NCBI GenBank assembly: GCA_947496375.1
Contig: CANMCY010000002.1
Coordinates: 53,082-117,081 of the forward strand
DNA: 64,000 nt
Direction of reading: 5' to 3'
DNA from: Flavobacteriales bacterium
GTDB lineage: Bacteria > Bacteroidota > Bacteroidia > NS11-12g > UBA955
Position numbers and translations under genes: made by a program. Shown here piece by piece: positions 1,898 to 50,290 of this stretch (its first letter is position 1; each line of letters opens with the position of its first letter). A model generated the notes under the pieces. That model saw only the letters and a program-made list of their open reading frames with translations. It ran no database searches and was not told where the DNA came from.

Positions 1898-2860
1898 ATG
1901 CAGAAAGAAACTGTTTTGGTGATTGGTGCCTGCGGACAGCTGGGTACTGAGCTTGTGGAAGCCCTTAGGGGTATTTATGGCGAAAATCATGTGGTGGCCA
2001 GCGATGTGAAAAAAAGCGATAATGCCGTTTTTCAGACCGGCCCATTTGAAACACTCGATATTTTGGATAAACCCCGGCTGCTGGAAATACTGGAAAAGTA
2101 TAAACCCACCCAGGTGTATCATCTGGCAGCCCTGCTCAGTGCAACGGCTGAAAAAATGCCTGAATTTGCCTGGAAACTCAATATGGACGGTCTTTTTCAC
2201 CTGCTGGATGCAACCCGCGATACCGGCATTGTGAAAAAAGTGTACTGGCCCAGCAGCATTGCGGCTTTCGGGCCGAACACCCCAAGGTTCAACACCCCGC
2301 AGTATGGCGCCATGGATCCAACCACGGTTTACGGCATCAGCAAACTGGCGGGTGAATTGTATGCACAATACTATTTCAACCGCTGGGGCGTAGATACCCG
2401 CTCATTGCGTTATCCCGGGCTGATTGGCTATAAATCAGCTCCCGGCGGCGGCACTACCGACTATGCCGTATCCATCTACCACGATGCACTTACCACCGGC
2501 AAACACCACTGTTTCCTAAAACCCGGCACCATATTGCCCATGCTGTATATGCCCGATGCGCTGAAAGCCACGCTTGACATTATGCATGCGCCGGCAGAAA
2601 AAGTAAAAATCCGAAGCAGCTACAACCTGGCGGGCATGAGTTTTGGTCCGGAAGAAATTACGGCGGCCATTCAAAAGCACATTCCCGGATTTGAGAGCAC
2701 CTACGAACCCGACTACCGACAGGCCATTGCCGATTCATGGCCCGCCGTGATAGACGATAGCAGGGCCCGCGAAGACTGGGGCTGGAAACCCGATTATGAC
2801 CTCGACAGGATGACAGCAGATATGTTGGAAAACCTGAGGAAGTTGAGAGTTAATAGTTGA
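1898..2860 (+). CDS. NAD-dependent epimerase/dehydratase family protein, probable SDR-type L-threonine 3-dehydrogenase
   Basis: N-terminus VLVIGACGQLGTELVEAL (Rossmann motif) and catalytic YGISK (YxxxK). About 320 aa from the ATG at 1898; the listed ORF extends upstream from 1775. Family assignment is solid; the specific substrate is inferred. Confidence 0.6.
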   Translation: MQKETVLVIGACGQLGTELVEALRGIYGENHVVASDVKKSDNAVFQTGPFETLDILDKPRLLEILEKYKPTQVYHLAALLSATAEKMPEFAWKLNMDGLFHLLDATRDTGIVKKVYWPSSIAAFGPNTPRFNTPQYGAMDPTTVYGISKLAGELYAQYYFNRWGVDTRSLRYPGLIGYKSAPGGGTTDYAVSIYHDALTTGKHHCFLKPGTILPMLYMPDALKATLDIMHAPAEKVKIRSSYNLAGMSFGPEEITAAIQKHIPGFESTYEPDYRQAIADSWPAVIDDSRAREDWGWKPDYDLDRMTADMLENLRKLRVNS

Positions 2861-2864
2861 CAGT

Positions 2865-3420
2865 CTACAGTTGATAGTCTGTCCGTGCCTGAATAAGGTT
2901 GACCGTTTTTAGGTTTATTATTTTACACTTATTGTAGCTCCATAGGAGCGAAATATTACTAGCGCCGAAGGCGCGGCATATCGATGTTGTTTCTGCCAAT
3001 ATGCGACCCCCTTCGGGGTCGAGCATTCCATGCGCCGTTCCGGCTAGAGATGTTTGACCCCTTCGGGGTCAGCGCTGCAGGCGTTGTTCAAAAAGACAGG
3101 GGGGTTCTGCCAATAGGACTCGGTAGCCACCATAAATAGTCGTGACCCCGAAGGGGTCAAACATCTCTAGCCCCGTAGGGGCGACATTGGGAATTCTACA
3201 GATAGGTTTAGGAAACAGCCATGTAGCCAGGAACAACCCATCCAAGGTTGGGGTTGCATCGGTATTAAAAGCCAGACATGGAATTTTAAATATAGTTTCG
3301 GTATTAACCATGTACAAGCAGGACCCCAACGGGGTTATACATCTCTAGCCCCGTAGGGGCGAAAAAATCGACCCCGGAGGGGTCGTACAAACGAGGATGA
3401 ATTTTGTGGTCTGTGGGCAT
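2865..3420. repeat. Cluster of GC-stem/tetraloop hairpins with internal inverted and direct repeats
   Basis: Hairpins include gaccccttcggggtc (x2), gaccccgaaggggtc, agccccgtaggggcg (x2), gaccccaacggggtt, cgaccccggaggggtcg and gcgccgaaggcgcgg. ggctagagatgtttgacccc (~3036-3055) is the inverse of ggggtcaaacatctctagcc (~3153-3172). catctctagccccgtaggggcga is directly repeated at ~3163 and ~3340. Confidence 0.8.
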
Positions 3421-3661
3421 GCCAACCACGTTTCTATGGATGAGAAAACGTATATGCCTGAATTAAAGTGCTGCAAGTATGGTAATCGCCCCTTTAAAAA
3501 ACAACAATATAAACATTTTTATTCGTAGATATTTATTATTTTTGTGGTGCGGGGTTATTGAACTACATTTTCCTTGGTGCGCTCAAGTGATTAAATATGA
3601 ATTTCATTTCGGGTCAATGCTGTTATCCCAATAACCTTTCGACTGATATAATTCAACCTAC

Positions 3662-6692: not shown

Positions 6693-7472
6693 ATGAAAAA
6701 CCTAAAAACAGCCCTTGTTACCGGTGCTTCGGGAGGCCTGGGACTTGAATTTGCCCGACTGCTGGCGGCAGACGGATACCGCGTTGTGCTGGTGGCACGC
6801 AATGAATCTGCCCTGAGGGATGTGGCTTCAGAACTGCAATCGCTGTATGGCGCAGAAGCCCACTGCTACCCCACAGACCTCTCCAAACCGGAAAACGTGG
6901 AGACCCTGTTACAACAACTTACATCTGACAACCTTAGCATTGATTGCCTGATCAACAATGCCGGTTTTGGCGATGCCGGCTATTTTCTGGATAAGCCGTT
7001 TTCCATGCACCGGGAAATGATGATGCTGAATATGTTCGCCCTTACCCGGCTCACCCATGCCCTGGCCATGGAAATGAAAGCCAAAGGACACGGCTACATC
7101 CTTAACCTGGCCTCTACGGCTGCTTTTCAGCCCGCCCCGGCCTTCGCACTGTATGCTGCCACCAAATCGTTTGTACTCAGCTTCAGCGAAGCACTGCGCT
7201 ACGAACTGCGTCAATCCGGGGTGAGCGTAACGGTATCCTGCCCCGGCCCCACGGAAACGGCTTTTCATGACCGTGCTGCCACCCGCACTTCCAAAATTAT
7301 GCAAATGGGCATGATGAAACCCGAAGTAGTGGCTGAACAGGCCTATAAAGCCCTTAAAGCCGGCAAAAGAAGGGTGGTTCACGGCTGGCTGAATAAGATA
7401 TTGGCCATGAGCGGAAGCTTTACACCCCGTGACGTGCTTATCGCCACTACGCATAAAATGATGAAGCCGTAA
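6693..7472 (+). CDS. SDR family oxidoreductase
   Basis: Short-chain dehydrogenase motifs TGASGGLGLEFA (cofactor binding), NNAGFG and YAATK (YxxxK). Confidence 0.85.
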   Translation: MKNLKTALVTGASGGLGLEFARLLAADGYRVVLVARNESALRDVASELQSLYGAEAHCYPTDLSKPENVETLLQQLTSDNLSIDCLINNAGFGDAGYFLDKPFSMHREMMMLNMFALTRLTHALAMEMKAKGHGYILNLASTAAFQPAPAFALYAATKSFVLSFSEALRYELRQSGVSVTVSCPGPTETAFHDRAATRTSKIMQMGMMKPEVVAEQAYKALKAGKRRVVHGWLNKILAMSGSFTPRDVLIATTHKMMKP

Positions 7473-7562
7473 AGGGTTGAGTAGGCGAATGGTTTAATCG
7501 TTGAATCCGATTACCGGTTGGCCCGGGAATTCTATGTGTTGCAGTATTATCGAAAAATCGGC

Positions 7563-20842: not shown

Positions 20843-21190
20843 CTACGCCGTGTGGTTGGTGTCCCGCCAATCACTGTTTTAGACAGTCGGGGATGACGCC
20901 AACCGTAGGGTAAATCTATGATTAATCCGTTATTTCACTCCTTCGGAGTTCCGTGTATCGATTATGGCATTTTCTATGAAAATGCCGCTCCTTCGGAGCT
21001 AAGCAAACCCTTTTGCGACCTGTACCGTCGCCGTGTGGTTGGCGTCCCTGCCAATCAATGTTTTAGGTGGTCGGGGATGACGCCAACCGTAGGGTAAATC
21101 TATTATTAATCCGTTATTTCACTCCTTCGGAGTTCCGTGTATCGATTATGGCATTTTCTACAAAAATGCCGCTCCTCCGGAGCTAACACC
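20843..21190. repeat. Two tandem ~182-bp copies of the dispersed hairpin-module repeat
   Basis: Unit runs cgccgtgtggttggYg...cactgttttag...ccaaccgtaggg...cactccttcggagtt...ggcattttcta(tg/ca)aaaatgcc...gctcc(ttcg/tccg)gagc. Copies begin at 20847 and 21029. Further hairpins gccccgtaggggcg and gcgccgtaggtgcggc follow at 21249-21315. Confidence 0.85.
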
Positions 21191-21368
21191 CATGGCTGTC
21201 CGTCGGGCTTCAGGTTCGTATTTCCGACAAACAAGCAGGGCACATCAAGCCCCGTAGGGGCGATATCTTAATAACACCGTCTAATAACCACACCTCAGCG
21301 CCGTAGGTGCGGCATATACAACGCCGATAACGCAGTAAACCTGCTGATATACCTGAAATAGAACTCCC

Positions 21369-21545: not shown

Positions 21546-23954
21546 ATGGAAGATGCTGCCAATGCCCCCGCAGCCCTCACAAGGGAAGACTTTCGTAAAC
21601 AGGTACTCCACGATTACCGTATGGCCTGTGAAAGCCGTCAGGCAAGCCTCCTGGGCCGCAAGGAAGTACTGACCGGAAAAGCCAAATTTGGCATTTTCGG
21701 CGATGGAAAAGAAATAGCCCAGATTGCCATGGCCAAAGTGTTTCAAAACGGCGACTGGCGAAGCGGTTACTACCGCGACCAAACCTTTATGTTTGCCCGT
21801 GGCATGAGCACCGTGCAGCAGTTTTTTGCCCAGCTCTACGCCGACCCAGACACTGACCGCGAACCCGCCAGCGGAGGTCGCAGCATGAACGGACACTTCG
21901 CCACACGCCTGCTCGATGATCAAGGCAACTGGCTGCCCCAAACCGACCGCCCCAACTGCAGCGCCGATATCTCTCCCACCGCCGGACAAATGCCACGCCT
22001 GCTCGGTCTGGCACTGGCCAGCAAATTATACCGCGAAAACACCGCCCTGCACGGCTTCACCGACTTTTCCCTGAAAGGCAATGAAATCGCCTTTGGCACC
22101 ATTGGTAACGCCAGTACCAGCGAAGGCATTTTCTGGGAAACCATGAACGCCGCCTGTGTCATGCAGGTGCCGCTGCTCATGAGCGTGTGGGACGATGGAT
22201 ACGGCATCTCTGTACCTGCAAAATACCAGACAGCCAAAGAAAACATATCACGCCTCCTGAGCGGTTTTCAGACCGATAAGTTTGGACAGGGCATGGAAAT
22301 ATTTACGGTAAAAGGATGGGATTACGCCGAGCTCTGCAAAGTGTATAAACAGGCCGCCGACGTTTGCCGTCAAAAACATACCCCCGTGCTGGTGCACGTT
22401 ACCGAGGTTACCCAGCCCCAGGGCCATAGCACCAGTGGTAGCCACGAGCGCTACAAAAGCAAAGAACGCCTGGAGTGGGAACAGGAATATGACTGCATCA
22501 TAAAAATGCGCGAATGGCTTATTGCCAATGATTTGGCCACCGGCGAGGAAGCCGACGCCATTGAGGCGGAAGCCACCCAAAGCGTACGCGAAGCCCAGAA
22601 AGCGGCCTGGACCTCATTTCTGGGAAGCATCAAATCAGAGGTTGCCGGTTTTTGTAACATCATCAATACCCTGGCAGCTCAGGGAGTAGCTACCGCAGAA
22701 TTTGCAGAACTCAGCGCCGGTTTGCAGAGCAAATCAGACCCCCTGCGTAAGGATATTGGCAATGCGCTGCATAAAGCACTGCGCCTTACCGCATCACTCG
22801 ATGCACCCCAAAAACAATCCCTGCTTACCTATTACCGCGAGTTTACCGATTTAAACCACAACCGATACAGCAGTCATTTGCACAGCCAAAGCCCCGGCAA
22901 TGCGCTGTCAGTGCCCGAGGTTCTACCTGTATTTGGCGAGGAAACCGTAGACGGATACATGGTGGTTCGCACCTGCTTTGATGCGGCCATGCAAAGAGAC
23001 CCCAGGGTTTTCGCCTTCGGTGAAGACGTGGGCAAAATCGGAGATGTAAATCAGGGCTTTAGCGGCCTGCAGGAAAAATACGGAGAGCTGCGTGTAACCG
23101 ACAAGGGCATACGAGAATGGAGCATTGTGGGTGAAGGCCTTGGAGCTTCCATGCGTGGCCTGCGACCCATCGCCGAAATTCAATACCTCGATTACCTGCT
23201 CTATGCGCTGGAGGTAATGAGCGATGATATTGCCACCCTGCAGTACCGAAGCAAGGGCGGACAAAAAGCACCGGTGATTATCCGCACCCGCGGACACAGA
23301 CTTGAAGGCATCTGGCACAGCGGCAGCCCCATGGGAACCATCATCCATGCGGTGCGTGGCATGCACGTGTGTGTGCCCCGCAACATGACCCAGGCCGCCG
23401 GCATGTACAATACCCTGCTGAAAAGCGATGAACCTGCCCTGGTGGTGGAATGCCTGAACGGATACCGCATTAAGGAAAAACTCCCCTTGAATATGGATGA
23501 GTTTACCGTGCCTTTGGGACGTCCGGATACCCTGCGCTATGGCGAACACGCAACCCTGGTAACATACGGAAGTTGCTGCCGCGTTGCCATGGAAGCCGCA
23601 GAAATGCTGGCTGAACATGGCATTCGCCTGGAAATTATTGACGTGCAAACCCTGCTGCCTTTTGATGTGAACCACCTGATCGTGGAAAGCTTAAAGGAAA
23701 CCAATCGCCTGGTGGTATTGGATGAAGACGTACCCGGCGGTGCATCGGCATTTATTTTGCAACAGGTACTGGAAAATCAGCATGGTTATCAATACCTGGA
23801 TAGCGCACCGCTCACCATCACGGCACAACCACACAGACCTGCCTACGGCACCGACGGTGACTACTTCAGCAAACCCGGCGCCGATGAAATCTTTATGAAA
23901 ATATATGCCATGATGCATGAGGCAGACCCTGCTACCTGGCCTGCTTTGGTATAG
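21546..23954 (+). CDS. 2-oxoacid (alpha-ketoacid) dehydrogenase E1 component, fused alpha/beta subunits, TPP-dependent
   Basis: 802 aa. The N-terminal half resembles the E1-alpha TPP-binding domain and the C-terminal half resembles E1-beta (transketolase-like Pyr and C-terminal domains). This fusion is common in Bacteroidota. Confidence 0.8.
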   Translation: MEDAANAPAALTREDFRKQVLHDYRMACESRQASLLGRKEVLTGKAKFGIFGDGKEIAQIAMAKVFQNGDWRSGYYRDQTFMFARGMSTVQQFFAQLYADPDTDREPASGGRSMNGHFATRLLDDQGNWLPQTDRPNCSADISPTAGQMPRLLGLALASKLYRENTALHGFTDFSLKGNEIAFGTIGNASTSEGIFWETMNAACVMQVPLLMSVWDDGYGISVPAKYQTAKENISRLLSGFQTDKFGQGMEIFTVKGWDYAELCKVYKQAADVCRQKHTPVLVHVTEVTQPQGHSTSGSHERYKSKERLEWEQEYDCIIKMREWLIANDLATGEEADAIEAEATQSVREAQKAAWTSFLGSIKSEVAGFCNIINTLAAQGVATAEFAELSAGLQSKSDPLRKDIGNALHKALRLTASLDAPQKQSLLTYYREFTDLNHNRYSSHLHSQSPGNALSVPEVLPVFGEETVDGYMVVRTCFDAAMQRDPRVFAFGEDVGKIGDVNQGFSGLQEKYGELRVTDKGIREWSIVGEGLGASMRGLRPIAEIQYLDYLLYALEVMSDDIATLQYRSKGGQKAPVIIRTRGHRLEGIWHSGSPMGTIIHAVRGMHVCVPRNMTQAAGMYNTLLKSDEPALVVECLNGYRIKEKLPLNMDEFTVPLGRPDTLRYGEHATLVTYGSCCRVAMEAAEMLAEHGIRLEIIDVQTLLPFDVNHLIVESLKETNRLVVLDEDVPGGASAFILQQVLENQHGYQYLDSAPLTITAQPHRPAYGTDGDYFSKPGADEIFMKIYAMMHEADPATWPALV

Positions 23955-47425: not shown

Positions 47426-48115
47426 GTGAAACATTTTGTTATTGCCGGCGGAAGCCATGGTATTGGGCTGGAAATTGTTCAGCAATTGCTGAACCAAGGG
47501 AATAAAGTAACCTGCATCAGTCGCACGGCGCCTGGCATTGCACATGAAGCGCTAAACCATATTGCCCACGATTTTTCTCAGCCATCAGAATTGCCCGCGA
47601 TAGATGGCCCCATTGATGGCGTGGCGTATTGTCCAGGCAGCATCAATTTAAAAATGTTCCGGAGCTTAAAGCCCGAGGAATTTCAGCAGGATTTCGACCT
47701 AAATGTGATGGGAGCGGTTCGGTTGTTGCAGAAACTGCAATTAGGACTGAAAGCCGTTCCGGGTTCGTCGGTAGTGCTTTTCAGCACGGTAGCCGTGCAG
47801 CAGGGCATGGCCTTCCACAGCAGCATTGCGGCCGCCAAAGGCGCCATTGAGGGGTTAACCCGCAGTTTAGCGGCGGAATGGGCCCCTTCTATTCGTGTTA
47901 ACGCCATTGCGCCGAGTCTGGTGGAAACGCCACTTTCGGCCAAATTGCTATCCAGTCCGGAAAAGGCCGAGGCATCGGCCAAACGCCACCCGCTGGCGCG
48001 TGTGGGCAGGCCTGAAGACATTGCCTCGCTGGCCGTTTTTCTGCTGGGTGATAAAAGCGGCTGGATTACCGGCCAGGTGATGGGGGTAGATGGGGGGATG
48101 TCGGCACTTCGTTAA
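47426..48115 (+). CDS. SDR family oxidoreductase
   Basis: GGSHGIGLEI cofactor motif, with catalytic Ser, Tyr and Lys in AKGAIEGLTRSLA. Probable GTG start at 47426 (MKHFVIAGG); the listed ORF begins at the TTG at 47417. Confidence 0.75.
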   Translation: MKHFVIAGGSHGIGLEIVQQLLNQGNKVTCISRTAPGIAHEALNHIAHDFSQPSELPAIDGPIDGVAYCPGSINLKMFRSLKPEEFQQDFDLNVMGAVRLLQKLQLGLKAVPGSSVVLFSTVAVQQGMAFHSSIAAAKGAIEGLTRSLAAEWAPSIRVNAIAPSLVETPLSAKLLSSPEKAEASAKRHPLARVGRPEDIASLAVFLLGDKSGWITGQVMGVDGGMSALR

Positions 48116-48179
48116 AAATTAATTGGTTTTTTAATAAAACCCTTTATCTAAATGCATTTCATGGGTGTATTTTCGCCCC

Positions 48180-49607
48180 ATGAAACTCACGGTTTGGGGT
48201 GCAGCACAGCAGGTTACCGGCAGCAAGCATTTATTGGAATTGCCCGGTGGCACGCGGGTGCTGGTGGATTGCGGCCTAGACTATGATAAACGCAGTGAGT
48301 TTGAAGAACGCAACAGCCGTTTTCCTTTTGATCCCAAAAGCATTGATTTGCTGATATTGACGCATGCCCACATCGACCACAGTGGCAATGTTCCCAACCT
48401 GATCCGTCAGGGTTTTAGCGGTAAAATATTGTGTACACCGCCTACACTGGAGCTCAGCGACTACCTGCTGCAGGATAGTCTGAATATACAGCGCATGGAA
48501 ATTGCCGCTAAGATGAAGGCGCTGAAGCGTAAACACAATAAAAAAGGAAAACACTACGGTGGCAGCGAGCCTCAGCCGCTGTATGCCCGCAAGCACATAG
48601 CGGACATGCTGGACATGGCCCTGCTGATGGAATACGGACACAAATACGAATTCAACGAAGAACTCAGCGTAGAGTTTCTGCAGGCCGGACATATTTTGGG
48701 TGCCGGCAGTGCGGTGCTGCATGTGAAAACACCCGAAGGTGTTAAAACCATTGGTTTTACCGGAGATCTGGGCAATTACCAAAGCAAACTGGTGCCCGAC
48801 CCACAACCCATGCCTCAGCCGGATTATATCATTTCCGAAAGCACTTACGGGGGCCGGAATCATGTGGTTTCGCCCATGCGTGCAGAAGAAGAACTGCTAA
48901 AGCATGTGCAGGAAACCTGCGTGGAAAAGGGCGGTAAGCTGGTGATTCCCGCGTTTAGTGTGGGGCGCACACAGGCCATTATTTTCACACTGAATCAGCT
49001 TTACAGGGCGGGCAGGTTTCCCAATGTAAAGGTGTTTACGGATAGTCCTTTGGCCATTCGCAGCACCTCGGTATATCAGCATAATGTAGACCACCTGAAT
49101 GAGGAGGCGGCTGCATTTCAGAAGCAATATGGCTCATTGTTTGATTTTCCGCTGTTGCATGTGGTGGAACACGAAAGAGAAAGCGATTTACTGAGCGTAT
49201 TGCCGGAGCCCTGTGTGATTATCTCCGCAGCGGGTATGGTAGAGGGAGGCAGGATTCAGATGCACGTGAGAAACAATGTGGGCGATGCACGCAACACCAT
49301 ACTGATAGCCGGTTTTTGTGCCGAGGGAACGCTGGGACACCGCTTGTTGCAGGGGCAGAATTTTGTGGAGATTAACTACAAGCAAAGGCCTGTGCGTGCG
49401 GATATCAGAAGAACGGATGCATTTAGCGCCCACCCGGATCATGCGGGTCTGTTGAAATACCTAAAAGCCAGTGCGGGCAAGAATACCCGAGGAATATTCC
49501 TGGTGCACGGAGATGCCCGTCAGATGGAGCAACTGGCTGCCGATGTAGATTTCAGCCGCGCTATTATCCCTGTAAAAGGCCATAGCTACAACCTGATGGA
49601 GATGTAA
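48180..49607 (+). CDS. MBL-fold metallo-hydrolase, beta-CASP ribonuclease family
   Basis: The HxHxDH motif (LTHAHIDHSGN) and downstream beta-CASP motifs are present. 475 aa from the ATG at 48180. Confidence 0.75.
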   Translation: MKLTVWGAAQQVTGSKHLLELPGGTRVLVDCGLDYDKRSEFEERNSRFPFDPKSIDLLILTHAHIDHSGNVPNLIRQGFSGKILCTPPTLELSDYLLQDSLNIQRMEIAAKMKALKRKHNKKGKHYGGSEPQPLYARKHIADMLDMALLMEYGHKYEFNEELSVEFLQAGHILGAGSAVLHVKTPEGVKTIGFTGDLGNYQSKLVPDPQPMPQPDYIISESTYGGRNHVVSPMRAEEELLKHVQETCVEKGGKLVIPAFSVGRTQAIIFTLNQLYRAGRFPNVKVFTDSPLAIRSTSVYQHNVDHLNEEAAAFQKQYGSLFDFPLLHVVEHERESDLLSVLPEPCVIISAAGMVEGGRIQMHVRNNVGDARNTILIAGFCAEGTLGHRLLQGQNFVEINYKQRPVRADIRRTDAFSAHPDHAGLLKYLKASAGKNTRGIFLVHGDARQMEQLAADVDFSRAIIPVKGHSYNLMEM

Positions 49608-49654
49608 CCTCTGTGTCCGAAGTTGGTAGACTTCGTGAAGCGGTGTAACTTTTC

Positions 49655-50290
49655 TATGCCACTCCTACGGAGTTGAGGATTCGTTTTGCGGCTGTGTTAT
49701 TAATATATCACCCCTATGGGGCTTTATGTGCGTTGCTTGCAGGCAATACGAACCTAAGACCCACCTTGCAGCACATTTCAGCTCCGTAGGAGCGGCATTT
49801 TTATAGAAAATGCCATAATTGATACACGAAACTCCGAAGGAGTGAAATAGCGGATTAATCATAGAGTTTCTATGCCGCACCTACGGCGCTGAGGGGACGT
49901 TTTCAGGCGGTGTTATTACTATGTCGCCCCGATGGGGCTTATGCGTCCTGCTTTTAGAAAACACAAACCTGACGTAAACCGGCAAGCCATGCATTTCAGC
50001 TCCGTAGGAGCGGCATTTTAATAAAAAACGCCATAATGGATACACCAAGCGCCGTAGGTGTGACATAACGAGCCAATAACCTTCACAGCGGCTGTCACCC
50101 TCCGGTTTGCGGCCTCCCAAAATGCCTAAAACAGTGATTGGCGGGGACGCCAACTACACGGCGACGGTGTAGGTCGCACAAGGGTTTGTATTAGCTCCGA
50201 AGGAGCGGCATTTTTATAGAAAATGCCATAATCGATACACGGAACTCCGAAGGAGTGAAATAACGGGCATCCGACGCCGCCACACAGCCG
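49655..50290. repeat. Array of >=3 copies (reverse orientation) of the dispersed hairpin-module repeat
   Basis: agctccgtaggagcggcatttttatagaaaatgccataattgatacacgaaactccgaaggagtgaaatagcggattaatcatagagtttc is the reverse complement of the unit at 20900-21000. Further copies lie at ~49997-50065 and ~50111-50290, the latter including the ctaaaacagtgattggcggggacgccaactacacggcgacgg module. Confidence 0.85.

Follow-up and report, generated by a model that had tools for sequence, protein, structure and literature searches.

Among partnerships of a bacterial host with the remnant of a mobile element that are long-lived and inherited vertically, the best case is that of repetitive extragenic palindromic (REP) elements and the REP doublets forming hairpins (REPINs) with their REP-associated tyrosine transposases (RAYTs), which are thought to copy or maintain REPs and REPINs in trans. 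To our knowledge, this REP/REPIN-RAYT partnership has been documented almost entirely in Proteobacteria. The palindromes of such systems (REPtrons) are short, GC-rich, imperfect, highly repeated and intergenic, and they are grouped in alternating orientation into bacterial interspersed mosaic elements (BIMEs). Here we describe a repeat family with the same properties in a 64,000-nt stretch of contig CANMCY010000002.1 from a Flavobacteriales bacterium (assembly GCA_947496375.1; hereafter the window). As in REPtrons, a single-copy HUH-Y1 gene is bracketed by inverted palindromes of this family, here seen in related genomes, and repeats are also found far away from the gene. We consider it probable, at about 70%, that these are REP/BIME-like (REPIN-like) repeats of uncultured freshwater Bacteroidota, serviced in trans by a domesticated IS200-class Y1 HUH enzyme.

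Two further groups of elements resemble this family. Insertion sequences of the IS200/IS605 type share with it the Y1 transposase class, with its HUH motif and catalytic tyrosine, and the small imperfect hairpins beside the gene; the IS608 and ISDra2 enzymes act on single-stranded DNA. In contrast to these insertion sequences, the Y1 gene described here is single-copy and syntenic across relatives instead of multi-copy, the hairpins on its two sides are inverted and not co-oriented, tnpB is absent and the repeats greatly outnumber the genes. Correia, ERIC and RUP elements, which are miniature inverted-repeat transposable elements (MITEs), are likewise 100-200 bp long, intergenic, bounded by terminal inverted repeats and foldable as a long hairpin. 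MITEs of this type have DDE-type parent elements and target duplications, whereas in our family the termini repeat an internal unit and the accompanying enzyme is of the Y1 HUH type.

Within the window, one repeat family was found at four intergenic loci (17549-17676, 19771-19846, 20844-21316 and 49653-50268), besides which a related hairpin cluster lies at 2937-3400. Tandem Repeats Finder detected a tandem at 20846-21186 (period 184, 1.9 copies, 93% matches), and a repeat search together with self-BLAST linked the segments 17550-17677, 19773-19843, 20846-21316 and 49651-50268, the last of them in opposite orientation, with repeat arms 73-98% alike. The dispersed family proposed in an initial annotation of this DNA was thereby confirmed, as was the intergenic position of every copy. 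Where that annotation had counted five or more loci, four carry the element B or module A described below (three full B, three half B and five A modules) and the related cluster is added to them. The interval 20843-21190, on which it had centred, covers two A modules with a half B between them, followed by the initial 77 nt of a full B, and its end coordinate falls mid-way in this full element (21114-21316). Perfect NNNCC-(GNA/TNC)-GGNNN hairpins numbered 19 in the window, compared with 0.43 +/- 0.56 in dinucleotide shuffles, and all except one of the 19 fall inside repeat loci. A hairpin regex that included the conserved tail gave 28 matches, compared with 0.8 +/- 0.9 by chance; about 22 tailed units are located in five intergenic loci. 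A scan of the window for tRNA and tmRNA genes found none. The genes beside the repeats encode UvrB (17677-19707, minus strand), an E1 dehydrogenase (21546-23954), a beta-CASP nuclease (48165-49607) and a SprB/type IX secretion system (T9SS) protein, and because of these flanking genes the window was placed in Bacteroidota.

Alignments of 13 and then of 21 copies (A1 and A3), drawn from the window and from public contigs (13 of them for the 21 copies), defined element B as a sharp-ended element of ~205 bp with 20-nt inverted termini, each of which is itself a hairpin. Conservation ends abruptly with TTATGYCGCACCTACGGCGCT at the left and AGCGCCGTAGGTGCGGCATA at the right (TTATG...GGCATA). B is built with four mini-hairpin units. 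On its sense strand, a unit comprises a 5-bp stem closed by CC/GG, a 3-nt G-N-A loop and the 3' tail G-R-Y-A-T-A, as in GCGCC-GTA-GGTGC-GGCATA, GCTCC-GTA-GGAGC-GGCAT and GCCCC-GTA-GGGGC-GATAT; the sense loop was GTA or GAA in 18 of the 28 regex matches in the window. Units are paired in the same orientation at a distance of 49-50 nt (21121/21171 and 21249/21298), and B is made of two inverted doublets, with their tails outward, around a ~65-nt spacer. The GC-rich hairpins were initially described as stems with variable tetraloops. Their loops are 3 nt long and only the centre base varies, so that loop variation had been overstated as a sign that structure is under selection; in the GGCATTTT hairpin, a stem of 8 bp carries a loop of 5 nt. 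Because the loops are triloops, a hairpin scan set to 4-nt loops returned nothing relevant.

The hairpins of REPtrons differ from these units in several respects. The hairpin described here is much smaller, with its 5-bp stem and triloop, and in place of a GTAG/CGTC tag at the hairpin foot (PMC3733652) it carries the 3' G-R-Y-A-T-A tail and G-T-A in the loop. The arrangement in 50-nt-spaced doublets and in a ~205-bp composite with four units is also different. The CGTC-tagged REPs known from Bacteroidetes were considered and ruled out, as they have 8-9-bp stems and 4-5-nt loops (PMC3733652).

A second palindromic module, module A (CGCCGTGTGGTTGGCGTCCCCGCCAAYCA...), forms a ~30-nt hairpin or a ~75-nt extended palindrome with the polarity GGTTGG...CCAACC. 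It is often joined to B, and arrays run A-B-A-B. The 184-bp tandem period is a composite of module A and the 5' half of B; the ~180-bp unit that had been taken as the natural repeat is therefore replaced by the sharp-ended element of ~205 bp. In a relative with 84% UvrB identity (L092, GCA_044224315.1), ~100-bp tandem repeats downstream of uvrB (7150-7480) hold GGTTGGTG-TTGT-CACCAACC hairpins that resemble module A, so that module A may be part of a separate and older family of hairpins.

As single-stranded DNA, B forms local hairpins on either strand (z = -2.7 each), and it can also be folded as one long hairpin. In the 21-copy alignment, 96.4% of the cells are paired in five local helices, compared with 35-50% when the partners were slid by 1-3 columns. 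Most helix pairs are invariant. Only three pairs change on both sides, all of which stem from two allelic terminal units, GCACC/GGCGC and ACTCC/GGAGT, and the covariation term of RNAalifold was -0.51 kcal/mol. The stems are thus preserved as the initial annotation had it, while the covariation is thin. Palindromy is strongly maintained, and with so few independent compensatory changes the data fit RNA and DNA structure alike. Among DNA mini-hairpins, C-GNA-G triloops form an exceptionally stable class, which fits a role of the unit-sense strand as single-stranded DNA.

The family extends well beyond the window. Our data covered the window and fragmentary contigs of metagenome-assembled genomes (MAGs). 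A 34-nt B-specific pattern was found in ten stretches of five freshwater Bacteroidota MAGs, several of these stretches lying at the end of a contig, and the 21-nt B terminus was found in 58 metagenome contigs; the terminus had no match in viral contigs and B had none in a plasmid collection. MAG contigs L003/L006 are syntenic with the window at 92-95% identity, and the metagenome matches L046 and L060 are 96-99% identical to it and conspecific. The ~205-bp element stands in unrelated genomic contexts in several MAGs. Many other terminus matches are high-GC soil or peat contigs, in which the unit occurs in inverted doublets or in 64-bp tandem arrays and scores above the gathering threshold of the Rfam family Acido-Lenti-1. 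CRISPR was ruled out for the arrays of 64-bp period in L020 and L057, since the whole 64 bp repeats without a variable spacer.

For a survey of neighbouring genes, 120 open reading frames (ORFs) within 500 bp of a hairpin in public contigs were all scanned against Pfam without prior assumption. The commonest family was Y1_Tnp, with six members (best E = 1e-27). Three of these proteins, of 159 aa, adjoin B in freshwater Bacteroidota (L002, L008, L053), and three, of 147 aa, are encoded in soil contigs (L019/L023, L025). To judge from their sequences, the motifs DHVH/DHIH and YIHNQERHH/YIQNQEAHH (pattern YIxNQxxHH) match those of TnpA-Y1 subclass 1.2, which has been described as low-copy and mostly cyanobacterial and Bacteroidetes (Quentin et al. 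2018; PMC6006769). The Y1 protein passed the NCBIfam model transpos_IS200 (68.9 bits, cutoff 55), and its closest solved structures are the ISDra2 and IS608 TnpA proteins (PDB 2XM3, 2A6M). A RAYT motif regex (Y..NP) found nothing over all loci because the enzyme carries YIxNQxxHH. Homologues of the Bacteroidota protein numbered 6466 at E <= 1e-10; those 68-76% identical to the query bear the source names of Chitinophagaceae genera (Hydrotalea, Niabella), Alkalitalea and Flavobacteriales.

In the reverse direction, the DNA around four homologues (from Hydrotalea, Alkalitalea and two freshwater lineages) was examined together with the loci of the hairpin scan, which gave eight Y1 loci from six lineages. 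In all six lineages, from Bacteroidota and Acidobacteriota, a Y1 gene encoding 147-159 aa is bracketed by a pair of units on either flank, the two pairs in opposite orientations. At loci with both flanks, the closest two units upstream of the gene are sense and lie at about -72 and -22; downstream, the nearest units are antisense at +12 to +56, with a second at +61 to +144 in most loci. L025 breaks off within the gene and thus lacks a downstream flank; the scan missed the -22 unit of L081, which is mutated. The unit pairing of 49-51 nt around the Y1 gene is the pairing that is found inside B. At the soil loci, the flanking units are bona fide Acido-Lenti-1 matches that are inverted across the gene, and the named homologues of the soil-locus protein are from Acidobacteriota.

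The Y1 gene looks fixed and single-copy. Its neighbours are unchanged across relatives of 82-95% identity, the upstream genes are identical in all contigs with P0122 and P0124, and in a complete 4.78-Mb genome the gene (P0205) is present in one place. Contigs with the freshwater version all end 70-550 bp past the gene, as expected if a high-copy repeat follows. B was also found on contigs without the Y1 gene in two MAGs (L001 as compared with L002, and L007/L009 as compared with L008). The enzyme belongs to the IS200 class (subclass 1.2) and stands outside the RAYT clade, which is a further difference from REPtrons, and REPINs have been associated with RAYT Groups 2 and 3 only (bioRxiv 10.1101/2021.07.10.451892). 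An IS200 "Group 3" without duplicates and with abundant flanking 16-mers has been described (Bertels et al. 2017; PMC5581495); it may be the same lineage as the Y1 gene reported here, in which case the idea was foreshadowed there.

A comparison of the window with Rfam gave no match at the gathering threshold. At the E-value threshold, matches were at chance level, apart from partial matches to Acido-Lenti-1 (RF01687; 13.2 and 12.8 bits at model positions 25-45 only, gathering score 37), so that the small-RNA family considered in the initial annotation finds no support in the window. The gathering score was reached in the soil loci L019, L020, L025 and L036. The 3' hairpin of Acido-Lenti-1 with the preceding UAUGCCG is the B-terminus unit TATGYCG-CACC-TAC-GGCG-CT, and full-scoring copies flank the Acidobacteriota version of the Y1 gene; the 5' 8-bp hairpin of the motif, in contrast, is missing from the window elements. 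Its discoverers rated the motif a probable RNA (Weinberg et al. 2010; PMC2864571). It is entered in Rfam as a small RNA, and no tie to a transposase was found in the literature searched. Matches to Acido-Lenti-1 at L019:183-228, 905-950 and 1082-1127 and at L025:687-732 are inverted across IS200-like Y1 genes, and those at L020:4002-4367 form tandem arrays of 64-bp period with no variable spacer. Because of this inverted bracketing and these spacer-less arrays, the Rfam entry looks like a REP-type DNA repeat of the Y1 system rather than a free-standing small RNA.

Strains that are 96-99% identical vary in the number of B elements and in cargo genes at both loci flanking uvrB. At the uvrB 3' site, the window, L046, L060 and L006 each have a different B/A mosaic between identical outer borders. 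From uvrB to the E1 dehydrogenase gene, the window reads A, an ORF of 266 aa, then A, half B, A and B. This ORF (19860-20660) has no Pfam or NCBIfam match; in its place L006 (3830-4480) and L060 (9618-10285) hold a PIN toxin-antitoxin pair, and L046 (3022-3240) has no cargo and one more B. The cassette-like cargo gene, bounded by module A copies, varies among strains that are 94-99% identical. In a relative whose UvrB is 88% identical, uvrB and the E1 dehydrogenase gene are separated by a 277-bp spacer without repeats. Relatives with 93% UvrB identity (L069-L079) carry the beta-CASP gene directly upstream of uvrB. The window has these two genes in inverted arrangement at a distance of 28.5 kb, with oppositely oriented A/B arrays at both junctions. 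L090 is arranged like the window and not like the L069 group. The repeats coincide with strain-level indels and synteny breakpoints.

Other strain differences were observed in the same contigs. A low-GC block of the window (13694-17206, about 41%), which holds genes for a thiol-activated-cytolysin-like protein (14735-15844) and a GYF_2-domain protein (15835-16605), is missing in the syntenic L006 and present in L060. Between the SDR and beta-CASP genes, L003 (2272-5293) has ~3 kb where the window has 62 bp (48104-48166), and L069 has a 154-aa ORF at this position.

The coordinates of the repeat features are collected in Table 1. The half B at 17549 begins 3 nt past the stop codon of the upstream ORF, and strains L060 and L006 have a full B at the orthologous place. 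The short module A that follows abuts the uvrB stop codon at 17677. The start of uvrB was fixed by a 100%-identical protein (P0001, 676 aa) and lies 21 codons downstream of the ORF start in the window; the next module A stands ~65 bp upstream of this true start, just past the stop of the ORF at 19860-20660. For the module A at 50093, folding is confined to a short local hairpin, and the module as a whole has z = -0.3. The cluster at 2937-3400 is situated in the 800 bp that separate an epimerase gene from an ORF6N-domain gene and has perfect 30-nt inverted arms at 3042-3071 and 3143-3172; the region 2860-3660 had no relatives among all fetched loci and no match to B or A.

Table 1. Repeat features of the window, with positions counted from its first nucleotide.
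Feature	Position	Strand	Evidence	Units and remarks
Related mini-hairpin cluster, not B	2937-3400	.		GCTCC-ATA-GGAGC; GCGCC-GAA-GGCGC with GGCATA; GCCCC-GTA-GGGGC (twice); GACCCC-GAA-GGGGTC
B, 5' half	17549-17633	+	nhmmer B profile, model positions 10-111	H1' GCACC-TAC-GGCGC 17558-17570; GGCATTTT hairpin; H2' GCTCC-TTC-GGAGC 17609-17621
Module A, short form	17646-17676	+	A-profile match; DNA fold -8.3 kcal/mol, z = -3.4	TTGGCG-TCCT-CGCCAA
Module A, long form	19771-19846	+	A profile 76.7 bits; DNA fold z = -2.2	~60-nt imperfect palindrome
Module A, long form	20844-20919	+	Tandem finding; DNA fold z = -3.0	First unit of the 184-bp tandem
B, 5' half	20929-21008	+		ACTCC-TTC-GGAGT at 20937; GGCATTTT hairpin; GCTCC-TTC-GGAGC at 20987
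Module A, long form	21026-21103	+	A profile; DNA fold z = -3.2	Second tandem unit
Full B, ~205 bp	21114-21316	+	B profile 225.8 bits; single-stranded DNA fold z = -2.7 on both strands	Left: inverted unit ACTCC-TTC-GGAGT 21121-21133; GGCATTTT/AAAATGCC hairpin 21150-21170; inverted unit GCTCC-TCC-GGAGC 21171-21183. Spacer: ~65 nt. Right: GCCCC-GTA-GGGGC with tail GATATC 21249-21267; GCGCC-GTA-GGTGC with tail GGCATA 21298-21316
Full B	49653-49850	-	B profile 203 bits	Both termini of the ACTCC/GGAGT variant
Full B	49869-50069	-	B profile 224 bits	
Module A, long form	50093-50166	-	A profile 76.5 bits	3' half diverged
B, 5' half	50187-50264	-	B profile and unit regex	

Explanations other than a Y1-serviced, REP-like family were weighed against the same evidence. 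The repeats could be genes for small structured RNAs or cis-acting RNA elements such as terminators or mRNA stabilisers, with an incidental Y1 association. The likeness of part of the unit to the 3' hairpin of Acido-Lenti-1, with its published rating as an RNA, the conserved G-T wobbles (e.g. GCGCC-GTA-GGTGC) and the position of several copies just 3' of genes speak for this, but the best Rfam score in the window stays at 13 bits against the 37 of the gathering threshold, the covariation term given above is small, the hairpins are not followed by a T-run, and copies point either way and sit between genes that are convergent, divergent or co-directional. B is moreover nearly symmetric, so that a G-T pair conserved in one terminus becomes an A-C mismatch in the other on any single strand, which argues against one functional transcript, and Acido-Lenti-1 itself is inverted around Y1 genes and forms spacer-less arrays. 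We regard an RNA function as improbable. A conventional MITE, in which 20-nt terminal inverted repeats would let a deleted form of a DDE-type insertion sequence move by cut-and-paste, seems to us slightly less probable still. Such an origin would suit the ~205-bp length of B, its sharp ends and inverted termini and the TA dinucleotides at both borders (TTAT...CATA); against it, the alignment of B copies displays no target-site duplication beyond the bases of the inverted repeat itself, none of the 120 flanking ORFs was found to encode a DDE transposase, the recurrent neighbour being the Y1 enzyme, and the termini are copies of an internal unit that is also found singly, in doublets and in other mosaics.

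The strain comparison bears on two other proposals. Immobile host sites for protein binding, nucleoid structuring or recombination could have spread without an enzyme of their own, only through homologous recombination and duplication in place; all strain differences are indeed indels, truncations and mosaics at existing repeat loci, and the repeats coincide with synteny breakpoints and a variable cassette. However, the ~205-bp element is found in unrelated contexts in several MAGs, and the unit is shared across phyla, always with one enzyme family and in a fixed geometry, for which local duplication alone is hardly sufficient; we judge this proposal about as improbable as an RNA function. The cargo bounded by module A, which in near-identical strains is the 266-aa ORF, the PIN toxin-antitoxin pair or nothing, recalls the attC sites of an integron-type cassette system, with the variable gene between uvrB and the E1 dehydrogenase gene flanked by direct A copies. 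The attC arrangement is R''(AAC)...R'(GTT), and the GGTTGG...CCAACC of module A has the reverse polarity. There is a single cassette, which lies between housekeeping genes, no integrase was found among the window ORFs tested, and the loss of the cargo in L046 is explained by homologous recombination between A copies. On polarity and context, attC sites were ruled out as a most improbable identity.

A REP/BIME-like family or the recognition sites of an unlinked enzyme were among the options in the initial annotation, which also advised a search for an unlinked RAYT-like gene, and the evidence points there, as units bracket the Y1 gene in related genomes. Several observations weigh against the reading that such an enzyme services these repeats. 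The sole published survey of subclass 1.2 reported no associated REP (PMC6006769), and the product of the unit-flanked Y1 HUH gene does not pass as a RAYT (30.4 bits with the NCBIfam model REP_Tyr_transpos, cutoff 80) and is of the IS200 class. The window contains no Y1 gene by tblastn; no transposase was found among the 20 of its ORFs that were scanned against Pfam, in agreement with the initial annotation. Unit tails face inward around the Y1 gene and outward in B, which means that B is not simply a gene-deleted REPtron. A clean pair of filled and empty B sites was not found among near-identical or conspecific strains, which differ by indels and recombination at loci where repeats are already present. 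Transposition is something that we infer, and for module A no partner was identified.

We nevertheless favour REP-like repeats with a Y1 enzyme acting in trans. Under this explanation, the units would fold on single-stranded DNA, which would be the substrate, and would be recognised there by an IS200-like Y1 enzyme whose gene, single-copy and fixed in the chromosome, would lie elsewhere in the genome; the source genome of the window would then carry the Y1 gene. The enzyme would nick and rejoin beside the units, by which the elements could be copied or maintained in trans. After seeding, the arrays would change mainly by recombination between copies, giving rise to tandem mosaics, truncations and the gain or loss of flanked genes. 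More tentatively, and at odds that we put somewhat below even, Bacteroidota and Acidobacteriota may have domesticated an IS200-class Y1 enzyme (subclass 1.2, Y-x3-Q-x2-HH) independently of the RAYTs, and this enzyme may maintain its own G-N-A-triloop repeats, in which case Acido-Lenti-1 would be its REP and B the Bacteroidota form.

The finding introduces no new principle and is of interest mainly for specialists in mobile elements and freshwater genomics. For the latter, the repeats break metagenome assemblies of common freshwater Bacteroidota, and they mark the sites where close strains differ in gene content and order. The Rfam "sRNA" entry Acido-Lenti-1 may need a new interpretation, and subclass 1.2 gains a candidate substrate that is testable with oligonucleotides. 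The REPtron-like architecture that surrounds another enzyme class, the IS200-like one, in Bacteroidota and Acidobacteriota represents a possible new host-element partnership; if the explanation is true, it would be a further partnership of the REPIN-RAYT kind outside Proteobacteria.

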